IMG/VR virus record: IMGVR_UViG_2603880150_000003
From: a virus
Lineage: Duplodnaviria; Heunggongvirae; Uroviricota; Caudoviricetes
Reading direction: 5' to 3' (one strand)
DNA length: 21,318 nucleotides
The notes under the pieces were generated by a model. The model saw only the letters and a list, made by a program, of their open reading frames with translations, made no database searches and was not told where the DNA came from. Shown piece after piece: positions 3,023-11,115 of the stretch. Made by a program: the position numbers and the translations under genes. Within the stretch, counting starts at the first letter, position 1. The number at the start of each line of letters is the position of its first letter.

Positions 3023-3604
3023 TTACCCTATAGGTGCTACTGGCCATTCAATATCCGGTGCAGTTGTTGTATTAACACGGTTCAGCAACACCCGATACTT
3101 CTTCCAGGCTTCCAGCAACGAGGTTTCTTCCTCCGTTGCAATTTCCAGATCTGCAGCATCCTGAAGCGGCGCAATATGCTCACTGGCTACCTGCATCAGG
3201 CTGTTTTTTGTTTCTTCCGCCTCCCGGATCCGGAACAGTTTTTCTGCTTCTGCATCTTTCACCCAGGCTGTGCCGTTCCACTTCTGATATTCCCCTCCCG
3301 GCGACAACCAGGTAACATTTTCCGGTAACGGACCGAGTTCAGAAATAAATAACGCGTCGCCGGAAGCCACGTCATAAACCGTTTTACCCCGATGGTCTTC
3401 AACGAGATGCCACGATGCCTCATCACTGTTGAAAACAGCCACAAAGCCAGCAGGAATATCTGGTGGTGCAATATCGGTACTGTTTGCTGGCAGACCTGTA
3501 TGAGGCGGAATATATGCGTCACCTTCACCAATAAATTCATTAGTTCCGGCCAGCAGATTATAAATTTTTATGGTCCGTGGTTGTTCACTCATTCTGAATG
3601 CCAT
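3023..3604 (-). CDS. tfa: Tail fiber assembly protein Tfa (lambda Tfa-like)
   Basis: 193-aa translation [51 protein letters not shown].. is near-identical to lambda Tfa as recalled; start overlaps the stf stop by 1 nt. Confidence 0.9.
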
Positions 3605-6742: not shown

Positions 6743-8353
6743 TCAGAATTTATAACCGACCCCAACGATGAATCCGTCAGTACGCCAGTCGCCACTGCCG
6801 GAGCCTTCATAAGCAATATCAACAACGACGGACGCTGCCGGATTAATCTGTATACCTGCACTCCACGCCACTGAGGTATGCCGCATTGCACTTTCGTCCC
6901 TGGCGGTGGTCGTCTCTTTCATATAGCCGGATGCATCATCACTCGGCTGACCAACAGCCTCCACGAATGCCGATTTGCCAACGGTGTTCACACTGCGAAC
7001 GTAAAAATAATAATCATAGCCCGGCCTGATATTGATACTGGCGGCTATCCAGTACAGCCCCGTGCCAAGGTAGCGGGCTGTGGTTTCAACCTGCCTGATA
7101 TCGGTAATCCGCTTTTCCGAGAACCAGAACTCAAACTGTACCGTCGGGTCATAAACGGCAAGATGCGGCGTGGCGGTTATCTGAAAATAGCCCGGCGTCA
7201 GCTCAATCCTCGACGGTGCTGCCGGTGCGGCAATCCGGAACGATACCGACGCCGGATCTCCCTGCTGCCCCCACGCATTTACCGCCCGGACTGTCAGCCT
7301 GTAGTTCCCCAGCGCCAGTTGCGTGAAGCGGTATGTGGTTTCCGTCGTCCGGGCCGTGCTGACCAGCCGCTCACTGCCGTCGTCCGCTGTTACGGTCAGA
7401 CGGAGCAGGAAGCTCACGCCCTTCACCACCTTCGGTGTGTCCCAGCGCGCCAGCACCTGATATTCCCCGCTGTCTGCAGTGACTTCTGCGGTCAGGTGCT
7501 GCACCGCTGGCGGCGTGACACCGTTCACCGTGCCACTCTGTTCGCCGTCAAAGTGCGCCCCGTTATCCACGATGGCCTCTTTTTCCGGCACATGCTGCAC
7601 GGCGGTGATGGCATACGTACCGTCATCGTTCTCACGGATACTCACACAGCGGAACAGGCGCTGGCGCAGCGTCGGCAGCTTCAGCCCCCACACGCTGTAT
7701 TCGGCAACGCCGTCAGGAACACGGCTCACTTTCACCTTAAGTCCGTCGGTGACGGACTGAACCTCCACGCTGACCGGATTACCACTTCCGTCAACCAGGC
7801 TTATCAGCGTGGTACCGGAGGATGGCAGCGTGATTTCACGGTCGAGCGTCAGCGTCCGGGTCTGGCTGTTCACCGCCAGCACGCGACCACCGGTGCTGAT
7901 ACCGGCATAGTCATCATCGCAGATTTCAATGACATCGCCCGGTACATGGCGAAGCCCTTCAGCACCCACGCTGAAATCCACGGTCTGCGTCTCCAGCAGT
8001 TCCGTTTTAATCAGCCACAGCCCGGCGCGGTGTGCCTGCCCCCGGCTGGTACAGCCAAAGGCATCCATCTTCGTGACATTACGACCGTAACGGGCAATGG
8101 CCTGCGTATCTTCAACAAGCTCTGTCGCCGTCTCCCAGCCGTTGTCCGGGTCAATCCAGTTCACCTCAACGGCATTATGGCGGTCCTTCAGGGCGCTGAA
8201 GCTGTAGCGGAACGGCGCGCCATCATCCGGCATCACCACATTACTGCGGTTATAGGTCCACACCTTATCCGACGGTCGGTCCTGCACGAACGTCAGCGTC
8301 TGCCCGTTCCATACCGGCATACAGCGCATCGCCGAGCAGAAATCACTGAGCAC
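6743..8353 (-). pseudogene. Tail tip/host-specificity protein J, central fragment, fused in frame to the C-terminal ~59 codons of lom
   Basis: Translation from [19 protein letters not shown].. through ..[20 protein letters not shown] matches the central part of lambda gpJ; the last 59 aa ([59 protein letters not shown]) match the Lom C-terminus with the Ail/Lom/PagC beta-barrel terminal signature. The J N-terminus and C-terminal receptor-binding domain are absent. Confidence 0.75.
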
Positions 8354-8888
8354 ATCCCACGCCTTGCGCTGTGTGGTCAGGTATCAGTTCATCCAGCGCG
8401 GCTGCTTTGTTCATGGCTTTGATGATATCCCGTTTCAGGAAATCAACATGTCGGTTTTCCAGTTCCGGAAAACGCCGCTGCACCGACAGGGGGATCCCGT
8501 CGAGAATACTGGCAATTTCACCTGCGATCCGCGACAGCACGAAAGTACAGAATGCGGTTTCCACCACTTCAGCGGAGTCTCTGGCATTTTTCAGCTCCTG
8601 TGCGTCGGCCTGCGCACGCGTAAGTCGATGGCGTTCGTACTCAATAGTCCCTGGCTGGAGATCTGTCTCGCTGGCCTGCCGCAGTTCTTCAACTTCCCGG
8701 CGCAGCTTTTCGTTCTCAATTTCAGCATCCCTTTCGGCATACCATCTTATAACGGCGGCAGAGTCATAAAGCACCTCATTACCCTTGCCACCGCCTCGCA
8801 GAACGGGCATTCCCTGTTCCTGCCAGTTCTGAATGGTACGGATACTCGCACCGAAAATGTCAGCCAGCTGCTTTTTGTTGACTTCCAT
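8343..8888 (-). pseudogene. nu1: Terminase small subunit Nu1 (NohD-like), C-terminally truncated at a deletion junction
   Basis: MEVNKKQLADIFGASIRTIQNWQEQGMPVLRGGGKGNEVLYD.. matches lambda Nu1 up to ..[10 protein letters not shown], then diverges ([11 protein letters not shown]) where the sequence enters the J reading frame. Confidence 0.8.
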
Positions 8889-9077: not shown

Positions 9078-9276
9078 CGTAACCTGTCGGATCGCCGGAA
9101 AGGACCCGCAAAATGATAATAATTATCATCTGCATGTCACAACGTGCATCTACGCCATCAAACCACGTCAAATAATCAATTATGACGCAGGTATCATATT
9201 AATTGATCTGCATCAACTTAACGTAAAAACAACTTCAGACAATACAAATCAGCGACACTGAATACGGGACAACCTC

Positions 9277-9471
9277 ATGTCAACGAAGAACAGAACCCGC
9301 AGAACAACAACCCGCAACATCCGCTTTCCTAACCAAATGATTGAACAAATTAACATCGCTCTTGAGCAAAAAGGGTCCGGGAATTTCTCAGCCTGGGTCA
9401 TTGAAGCCTGCCGTCGGAGACTAACGTCAGAAAAGAGAGCATATACATCAATCCAGAGTGATGATGAATAA
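9277..9471 (+). CDS. Small prophage protein, YlcI-like (DUF3950-type), 64 aa
   Basis: ORF MSTKNRTRRTTTRNIRFPNQMIEQINIALEQKGSGNFSAWVIEACRRRLTSEKRAYTSIQSDDE; position between cos and bor corresponds to ylcI in DLP12-like prophages. Family assignment is from memory. Confidence 0.5.
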   Translation: MSTKNRTRRTTTRNIRFPNQMIEQINIALEQKGSGNFSAWVIEACRRRLTSEKRAYTSIQSDDE

Positions 9472-9708
9472 ACATCCCGGTTTCTTCCACCATCGCACCG
9501 GAAAAGCGACTATGAGGGTAACCCTGCGTCTGTCAGCACAGTAAAACCCGGTGTGCATCGTTTTTGATTATTCCCGCACACTCACGCAGAAGGAATTCCC
9601 CGTCGGGCTACGGTCATGGTTAATGCGGGAATACGGCGACGATACAGCGCAGCTAAAAGGGTAATGGACAGAAAGAGCGGTTTATTTCATTCCACAGGAT
9701 TCTGAGTG

Positions 9709-9718
9709 CCCCCCCCCC
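9709..9718. repeat. Homopolymeric C10 tract (G10 on the - strand) about 115 bp upstream of bor
   Basis: Directly counted: positions 9709-9718 are ten consecutive C residues, followed by tcctcc. Confidence 0.9.
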
Positions 9719-9834
9719 TCCTCCAATAGGCTGAGCATCCACCTATATAGTTTTAATTTTCATCAATCCATTTAACTATCGTTTAATTGTTGTCACATAG
9801 GATTCTGCCGTTTTTAACAATGCAGGATAATAAG

Positions 9835-10128
9835 ATGAAAAAAATGTTGTTTTCTGCCGCTCTGGCAATGCTTATTACAGGATGTGCTCAACAGACGTTT
9901 ACTGTTGGAAACAAACCGACAGCAGTAACACCAAAGGAAACCATCACCCATCATTTCTTCGTTTCGGGAATTGGACAGGAGAAAACTGTTGATGCAGCCA
10001 AAATTTGTGGCGGCGCAGAAAATGTTGTTAAAACAGAAACCCAGCAAACATTCGTAAATGGATTTCTCGGTTTTATTACTTTAGGCATTTATACTCCGCT
10101 GGAAGCGCGTGTGTATTGCTCACAATAA
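9835..10128 (+). CDS. bor: Bor lipoprotein (serum-resistance moron)
   Basis: MKKMLFSAALAMLITGCAQQTFTVGNKPTAVTPKETITHHFFVSGIGQEKTVDAAKICGGAENVVKTETQQTFVNGFLGFITLGIYTPLEARVYCSQ matches lambda Bor; lipobox LITGC; antisense to the lysis genes as in lambda. Confidence 0.85.
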   Translation: MKKMLFSAALAMLITGCAQQTFTVGNKPTAVTPKETITHHFFVSGIGQEKTVDAAKICGGAENVVKTETQQTFVNGFLGFITLGIYTPLEARVYCSQ

Positions 10129-10159
10129 TTGCATGAGTTGCCCATAGATATGGGCAGCT

Positions 10160-10621
10160 CTATCTGCACTGCTCATTAATATACTTCTGGGTTCCTTCCA
10201 GTTGTTTTTGCATAGTAATCAGCCTCTCTCTGAGGGTGAAATAATCCCGTTCAGCGGTGTCTGCCAGTCGGGGGGAGGCTGCATTATCCACGCCGGAGGC
10301 GGTGGTGGCTTCACGCACTGACTGACAGACTGCTTTGATGTGCAACCGACGACGACCAGCGGCAACATCATCACGCAGAGCATCATTTTCAGCTTTCGCA
10401 TCAGCTAACTCCTTCGTGTATTTTGCATCGAGCGCAGCAACATCACGCTGACGCATCTGCATGTCAGTAATTGCCGCGTTCGCCAGCTTCAGTTCTCTGG
10501 CATTTTTGTCGCGCTGGGCTTTGTAGGTAATGGCGTTATCACGGTAATGATTAACAGCCCATGACAGGCCGACGATGATGCAGATAACCAGAGCGGAGAT
10601 AATCGCGGTTACTCTGTTCAT
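10160..10621 (-). CDS. Rz: Spanin inner-membrane subunit Rz
   Basis: [85 protein letters not shown].. matches lambda Rz; ATGA overlap with the R stop. The listed ORF starts 4 codons earlier. Confidence 0.85.
10219..10401 (-). CDS. Rz1: Spanin outer-membrane lipoprotein Rz1, embedded in Rz in the +1 frame
   Basis: [60 protein letters not shown]: lipobox VVGC and proline-rich segment as in lambda Rz1. Confidence 0.75.
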
Positions 10622-11115
10622 TGCTGACCCCACAAACAGATTTCACGCTCAATCTCACGACGAGTCATGAGACCTTTCCATTGCTTACCGCCAGCATATG
10701 TCCAGCGACGTAGCTGATCACATGCGCCTTTAATATCACCCTGGTTTATTTTGCGAAGAAGCGTCGATGTTCTGAAATTGCCAGCACCCACGTTGTAGAC
10801 GAACGAGTAAAGAGCGCCGCGCGTTGTTTCCGGTATATCGACTTTGATGTACGGGTTAATTTGTCTGGCGACAGTGGCAAGGTCTTTATTCAGGAGGGCT
10901 TTGCACTCTGCTTCGGTATACGTTTTACCGGGAATGATGTCTTTTCCTGTATGCCCGTGACATACAGTCCATACACCAACTATGTCTTTGTAAGGATTAT
11001 GTCTCACACCTTCCAGACCATCGTTACCACTTGGGCCAGTGATTAATACAGATGCTATAGCAATAGCCCCGCCACCAATAGCAGCAGCAACAGCTTTTCG
11101 TAATGATGGAGGCAT
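10618..11115 (-). CDS. R: SAR endolysin (phage 21 R / RrrD-type lysozyme)
   Basis: 165 aa with N-terminal signal-anchor-release-like hydrophobic segment ([20 protein letters not shown]) and lysozyme-like core; unlike lambda R transglycosylase; follows the holin with overlapping stop/start. Confidence 0.85.

Follow-up and report, generated by a model that had tools for sequence, protein, structure and literature searches.

A length-variable C10 tract in non-conserved spacer DNA upstream of the iss/bor gene of a degraded lambdoid prophage of Escherichia coli

The stretch of DNA analyzed here (21,318 nucleotides; hereinafter the window) is 99.995% identical to the corresponding sequence of E. 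coli F3_13_1_3 (NZ_CP074754), from which its annotation was transferred, and represents a heavily degraded lambdoid prophage located at att-lambda, between ybhB and ybhC. The head genes of this prophage are deleted, with a fragment of tail gene J found directly after nohD, and the replication region is partly inverted and truncated. The gene of interest, bor/iss, encodes a 97-amino acid lipoprotein (9835-10128, + strand; identified as an ORF and by the annotation of identical records), and its product, a Bor homologue, is labelled 'increased serum survival lipoprotein Iss' by the NCBI pipeline. Its upstream neighbour on the same strand is an ORF of the ylcI/YnfO family (DUF3950; 9277-9471), and the annotated late genes on the − strand are nohD/Nu1 (8343-8888), Rz, with Rz1 embedded in it (10160-10633), and the endolysin gene (10618-11115). 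Elsewhere in the window, there is a strong Rfam match to IS009 (RF02111; 227 bits) at 3063-3261 on the − strand, overlapping the ORF at 3023-3604 that is annotated as a tail fibre assembly gene. When the 911-bp bor region (9250-10160) was used as a query, 4,913 of the 5,426 complete E. coli genomes contained a match, and most of the query was present in 954 of these 4,913.

Between the ylcI-like ORF and bor, positions 9709-9718 consist of exactly ten C residues on the + strand (G10 on the − strand), in the context GAGTG-CCCCCCCCCC-TCCTCC. This is where the sequence-only reading had placed the tract, and the distance of about 115 bp that it gave is also accurate, with 116 nt counted between the tract and the bor/iss ATG at 9835. 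No ORF of at least 30 amino acids covers the tract on either strand, i.e. it is an uninterrupted homopolymer in non-coding DNA, as expected of a microsatellite. No other homopolymer in the 21.3-kb window exceeds 7 nt, the second-longest C run having 5 residues, and C8 matches as numerous as in the window were obtained in 5 of 100 dinucleotide-preserving shuffles; the tract is unusual for the composition of the window but not extreme for a single window. Besides the tract site, only six G/C runs of at least 8 nt were detected in 1.07 Mb of related lambdoid DNA. A published description of this tract was not found in the literature searched.

The length of the tract varies among strains. The proneness to length change that had been proposed from the sequence is borne out, with lengths from C5 to C11 observed in relatives with identical flanks and no sign of the invariance that would have spoken against it. 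Among near-identical relatives sharing the same flanks, phage 434 has C6, phage Turner and BL21(DE3) have C7, PhiR68_2 has C8 and 2G7b has C9, whereas strain AH21 has C11 in its complete genome. A pattern scan anchored on the flanks, covering IMG/VR and fetched phage and genome records, yielded 113 loci with exact flanks, at which the tract is C5 (4 loci), C6 (47), C7 (30), C8 (15), C9 (7), C10 (6) or interrupted, CCTCCC (4). Thus, the modal length is C6, and the distribution declines steadily from C6 to C11, with no length preferred across haplotypes. Even within a single haplotype that is identical over ±400 bp (n = 14), four lengths coexist (6 loci with C7, 5 with C8, 2 with C9 and one with C10). 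The pattern scan of genome contigs returned a single locus, in a 468-bp contig of a Thiomicrorhabdus heinhorstiae assembly (NZ_JACBGI020000059.1); the E. coli prophage sequence in this contig has a tract of 7 bases (match at 363-400), and its most likely source is contamination of the assembly by E. coli or phage DNA.

In a neighbour-joining tree built from 110 flank sequences, changes in the tract required 41 (unordered) or 56 (ordered) parsimony steps, compared to a maximum of 6 steps per site and a mean of 0.4-0.8 for the flanking sites on the same tree. The variance in length across haplotype groups increases with the mean length, from 0.18 at a mean of 6.1 to 0.87 at 7.9 and 2.4 at 9.1. 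The tract changes faster than substitutions accumulate in its flanks, and its instability rises with length; growth of the variance with the mean is the signature of length-dependent slippage. The four genomes nearest to the window have C10, C10, C11 and C9, and this divergence among close relatives at C9-C11 fits a greater instability at the long end.

At shorter lengths, the tract is stable. With the BL21(DE3) sequence as the query, 58 of the best 60 complete genomes were 100% identical, C7 included, and these C7 matches encompass approximately 30 independently sequenced strains of the B lineage (REL606, BL21, BL21(DE3), C41, C43, BLR, E. coli B derivatives and NEB strains). No length change was observed within this clone, whereas the nearest relatives of the window differ at C9-C11; decades of laboratory propagation have left C7 unchanged. 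Likewise, a matched span of 909 bases is common to 40 of the closest relatives of the window, and the one that was checked has C8. In these shorter alleles, the tract does not appear to act as a contingency locus.

The same data bear on the reliability of the count. The warning that such tracts are a common source of sequencing error applies to the C10 of the window, where an error of one base is possible, but is partly answered for shorter tracts, given that approximately 30 independent assemblies all have C7, so that calls at shorter lengths are reproducible. Homopolymer miscalls in draft assemblies could explain part of the spread in length. With respect to the window, the possibility to be considered is that the count of ten is an assembly miscall, the true length being 9 or 11. 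Homopolymers this long are error-prone on several platforms, the nearest relatives are one C apart, and NCTC9112, one of two records identical to the window over 911 bp, contains frameshifted phage genes of the kind typical of indel errors. However, C10 is present in two independent records of the same haplotype and in another haplotype as well, C7 is fully reproducible, and error alone would not produce a range as wide as C5-C11, so we consider a miscall in the window quite unlikely. This explanation concerns only the count in the window and is compatible with every other one discussed here; accordingly, the levels of confidence given in this work need not add up to certainty. As for NCTC9112 itself (locus L125, 9193-11119), it matches the window at 100% over the bor region 9250-10160, and its terminase large subunit gene and another phage gene are annotated as frameshifted, which suggests assembly indel errors; homopolymer counts from this record should be read with caution.

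To place the tract relative to the control region of bor/iss, eight upstream regions were aligned, namely those of the window, phages 434 and 21, the ColV-plasmid iss, the Stx-type bor, the ESY001-type iss, the K-12-type borD and lambda bor. From approximately 9751 to the ATG, all eight regions are alignable and strongly conserved, and this block contains a direct repeat, a 12-nt spacer, a −10-like hexamer and a Shine-Dalgarno sequence. The repeat, CATTTAactatCGTTTA (9769-9785, + strand), is homologous to TGTTTAgggttTGTTTA of lambda bor and K-12 borD, which perfectly matches the PhoP-box consensus, (T/G)GTTTA-N5-(T/G)GTTTA, located about 12 nt upstream of a −10 element. The copy in the window has three mismatches to this consensus, and because such matches are about as numerous in the window as expected by chance (60 vs. 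55), it is not significant by itself and is assigned as a putative PhoP-box-like repeat by homology. The predicted −10 element, TAGGAT (9798-9803, + strand), follows the repeat after 12 nt and is conserved in all eight regions, the hexamer in lambda and K-12 being TACGAT; the Shine-Dalgarno sequence is AGGA (9824-9827, + strand). borD (= vboR) has been treated as a PhoP-regulated gene (PMC5740661; PMC2789325), and mapping of the start sites of bor, borD or iss was not found in the literature searched. Judging from these elements, transcription of bor/iss would start near 9810, and the tract would then occupy roughly −92 to −101.

The promoter-like block begins approximately 50 bp 3' of the tract (the repeat starts at 9769 and the tract ends at 9718), and the tract itself belongs to a different kind of sequence. 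The spacer segment that holds it (9654-9740, approximate boundaries) is found only in iss-type upstream regions and is missing from lambda, from K-12 DLP12 and from the Stx-type bor; at the position of the tract, phage 21 has TCCCCAACT and the ColV-plasmid iss has ACCTACCA, both non-homopolymeric. Since the segment is either missing or non-homopolymeric in these loci, the pure poly-C is a lineage-specific feature of a dispensable spacer. Furthermore, no sigma-70-like hexamer pair matching at least 8 of 12 consensus positions spans the tract on either strand for any length from C5 to C12, and a consensus scan of 9400-10200 detected no + strand promoter and no terminator between ylcI and bor. 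Searches of Rfam with the whole window at the gathering threshold, and with 9400-9900 at a permissive E-value, gave nothing relevant at the tract, only sub-threshold chance hits. The suggestion that the tract might lie in the bor promoter is therefore not supported, insofar as the promoter is positioned by homology: the conserved block lies downstream, the tract segment has no counterpart in lambda, K-12 or the Stx-type bor, and no hexamer pair spans the tract. Given that the PhoP-box copy in the window is degenerate, another promoter nearer to the tract is conceivable.

A candidate for upstream regulatory sequence does adjoin the tract. The block GTTTATTTCATTCCACAGGATTCTG (9680-9704, + strand), past which the tract begins after 5 nt, resembles the proximal promoter block at 9781-9807, the resemblance taking in a GGTTTA half-site (9679-9684) and CAGGATTCTG. 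The local alignment score of the two blocks, 20, was matched by 19 of 1,000 shuffles (p about 0.02), weakly suggesting that the distal block may be a degenerate duplicate of the proximal one; if it were active, the tract would sit in the initially transcribed region. The tract could, then, tune the transcription of iss/bor, whereby changes of up to 6 bp would alter the spacing, helical phase or stiffness of the DNA between the PhoP-type promoter and an upstream partner, either the distal GGTTTA/promoter-like block (9679-9704) or the inverted repeat at 9553-9652, and different lengths would result in different amounts of the surface lipoprotein. The tract does precede a surface lipoprotein gene on the same strand, its length varies between strains, and a PhoP half-site-like GGTTTA with a copy of the −10 region lies immediately 5' of it. 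Upstream regions are also known to differ among iss alleles (PMC4313913), and homopolymers upstream of Neisseria surface-protein genes are reported to control expression, e.g. that of nspA (PMC6389960). Yet a tract some 92-101 bp before the predicted start falls outside both the −35/−10 spacer and the activator-to-−10 spacer of a promoter placed by homology, lambda, K-12 and Stx-type bor do without its segment, and phage 21 and the plasmid iss lack the homopolymer altogether. Nor is any length preferred across haplotypes, and C7 and, apparently, C8 stay constant within clones, in contrast to the alleles of switching loci. Moreover, even overexpression of a chromosomal iss allele failed to restore serum survival in APEC O78-9 (PMC4313913); this makes selection for tuning less plausible and reduces what could be gained by tuning this copy. 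On balance, we regard transcriptional tuning by the tract as unlikely.

The inverted repeat named above is long and imperfect, with its core, TATTCCCGCA/TGCGGGAATA, at 9569-9578 and 9624-9633, and was found conserved ahead of bor/iss in every prophage- and plasmid-borne type examined, lambda included. Considered as a structured RNA, it shows one compensatory CG-to-GC change, but it folds no better than its shuffled versions (z-scores of −1.0 and −1.2), and 9553-9652 has no match in Rfam. A 37-amino acid ORF in the same area (9551-9664), annotated as 'hypothetical' in some phage records, ends upstream of the tract and was rejected as a coding sequence because lambda has a 1-nt deletion inside it.

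Two further readings were considered. In the first, the tract would be the core of a Rho-utilisation (rut) site that ends read-through from ylcI before the iss promoter, with its length setting the efficiency. In terms of composition, the region resembles such a site, i.e. about 80 nt of C-rich, G-poor, unstructured RNA: 60-nt windows on the + strand over 9680-9779 contain 15-22 C compared to 5-10 G, and the RNA of 9665-9840 folds worse than its shuffled versions (z = +1.67); in addition, ylcI and iss are on the same strand, with no intrinsic terminator detected between them. However, this reading draws on composition and would require transcription of ylcI in lysogens and read-through into the region; the segment is missing from lambda and K-12 bor, and, with most alleles at only C6, the homopolymer as such cannot be indispensable. 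A rut site with a length-set efficiency is thus very improbable. In the second reading, long alleles would create a cryptic promoter on the − strand, directed toward ylcI antisense and cos/nohD. The hexamers TTGGAG (9726-9721) and CAGAAT (9704-9699), read from the sequence, would be separated by 16 nt in a G10 allele and by 17 nt in a G11 allele, such that the pair would be workable in long tracts only. The two hexamers match 7 of 12 consensus positions, below both scan thresholds, C6-C8, which make up most natural alleles, leave spacers of 12-14 nt, and no plausible gene lies downstream on the − strand; we find it extremely hard to credit that such a promoter is formed.

The broader claim, that the tract is a true tunable element and its length sets the Iss/Bor output of the lysogen, could be realised either if upstream sites changed their phase with respect to the PhoP-type promoter or if the Rho-dependent insulation from ylcI read-through changed, and is, in our estimation, distinctly improbable. 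Were it true, lineages bearing the prophage would differ heritably but reversibly in a serum-resistance factor. To our knowledge, E. coli has few such repeat-based switches of expression, and an effect of length on iss/bor expression would constitute an unusual one, acting on a gene that is a marker of avian and extraintestinal virulence. None of the results of this comparative analysis points to length-dependent expression of iss/bor.

Other C runs and junctions were noted in the same intergenic region. In three related prophage contigs, a second run of ten C bases is located about 190 bp upstream of the main site, at a position equivalent to approximately 9512-9528 of the window (G10 on the + strand of the locus; L009, ~2106-2115; L064, ~1045-1054; L065, ~2652-2661). 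On the bor strand, this run reads GCATGAGGG-C10-GCGAACC, where the window has ATGAGGGTAACCCTGCG, and the contigs that carry it have the interrupted main tract, CCTCCC; it seems that this region gives rise to poly-C runs repeatedly. In the ESY001-type prophages (with a P27-family terminase and an HNH endonuclease), homology to the window begins at 9719/9720, i.e. at the 3' end of the tract, which accordingly coincides with a mosaic recombination boundary.

The tract is, in our view, probably a mononucleotide repeat that is prone to slippage and nearly neutral, situated in a non-conserved spacer upstream of the prophage moron gene iss/bor. Under this scenario, replication slippage on poly(dC)/poly(dG) would add or remove single C residues, and would do so more often in longer runs, such that lineages would drift between C5 and C11, with C6 as a quasi-stable ground state and the C10 of the window at the unstable upper end. 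The polymorphism, the excess of changes over flank substitutions, the dependence on length and the location outside the conserved block were all directly observed, and slippage would be the cause of the length changes. The changes in length are most likely neutral, or nearly so, for the expression of iss/bor, as suggested by the position of the tract and its lack of conservation. In practical terms, the tract is a fast-evolving marker in a very widespread prophage module that can help separate close lineages, and also a predictable site of homopolymer miscalls, which calls for caution when assemblies are compared.

Homopolymers in promoters underlie phase variation of porA, opc and nspA in Neisseria and of fim in Bordetella. 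Like these, the tract described here is a homopolymer of strain-variable length that precedes a gene whose product is an outer-membrane protein with a link to serum resistance; unlike these, it is located approximately 90-100 bp before the predicted start, in a segment that other bor/iss loci lack, and its length stays constant in clones at C7 and, apparently, C8. With the PhoP-activated borD of K-12 DLP12 and bor of lambda, the locus shares the aligned block of repeat, 12-nt spacer, −10 element and leader; it differs from them in the sequence of the repeat, CATTTA/CGTTTA in the window vs. TGTTTA/TGTTTA, and in its upstream spacer, the longer iss-type segment that holds the tract. A closer parallel to the preferred reading, that of a near-neutral repeat, comes from the polymorphic mononucleotide repeats of non-coding E. 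coli DNA, reportedly described by Gur-Arie et al. in 2000 and said to have been used for strain typing by Diamant et al. in 2004. As in those repeats, an uninterrupted intergenic homopolymer differs in length between identical flanks, changes faster than point substitutions occur and is clonally stable at shorter lengths; the differences are that a G/C run of 10-11 nt stands at the long end for E. coli and that the tract resides in mobile prophage DNA rather than in the core genome. The tract is probably a further example of this well-known kind of sequence, of modest practical value.
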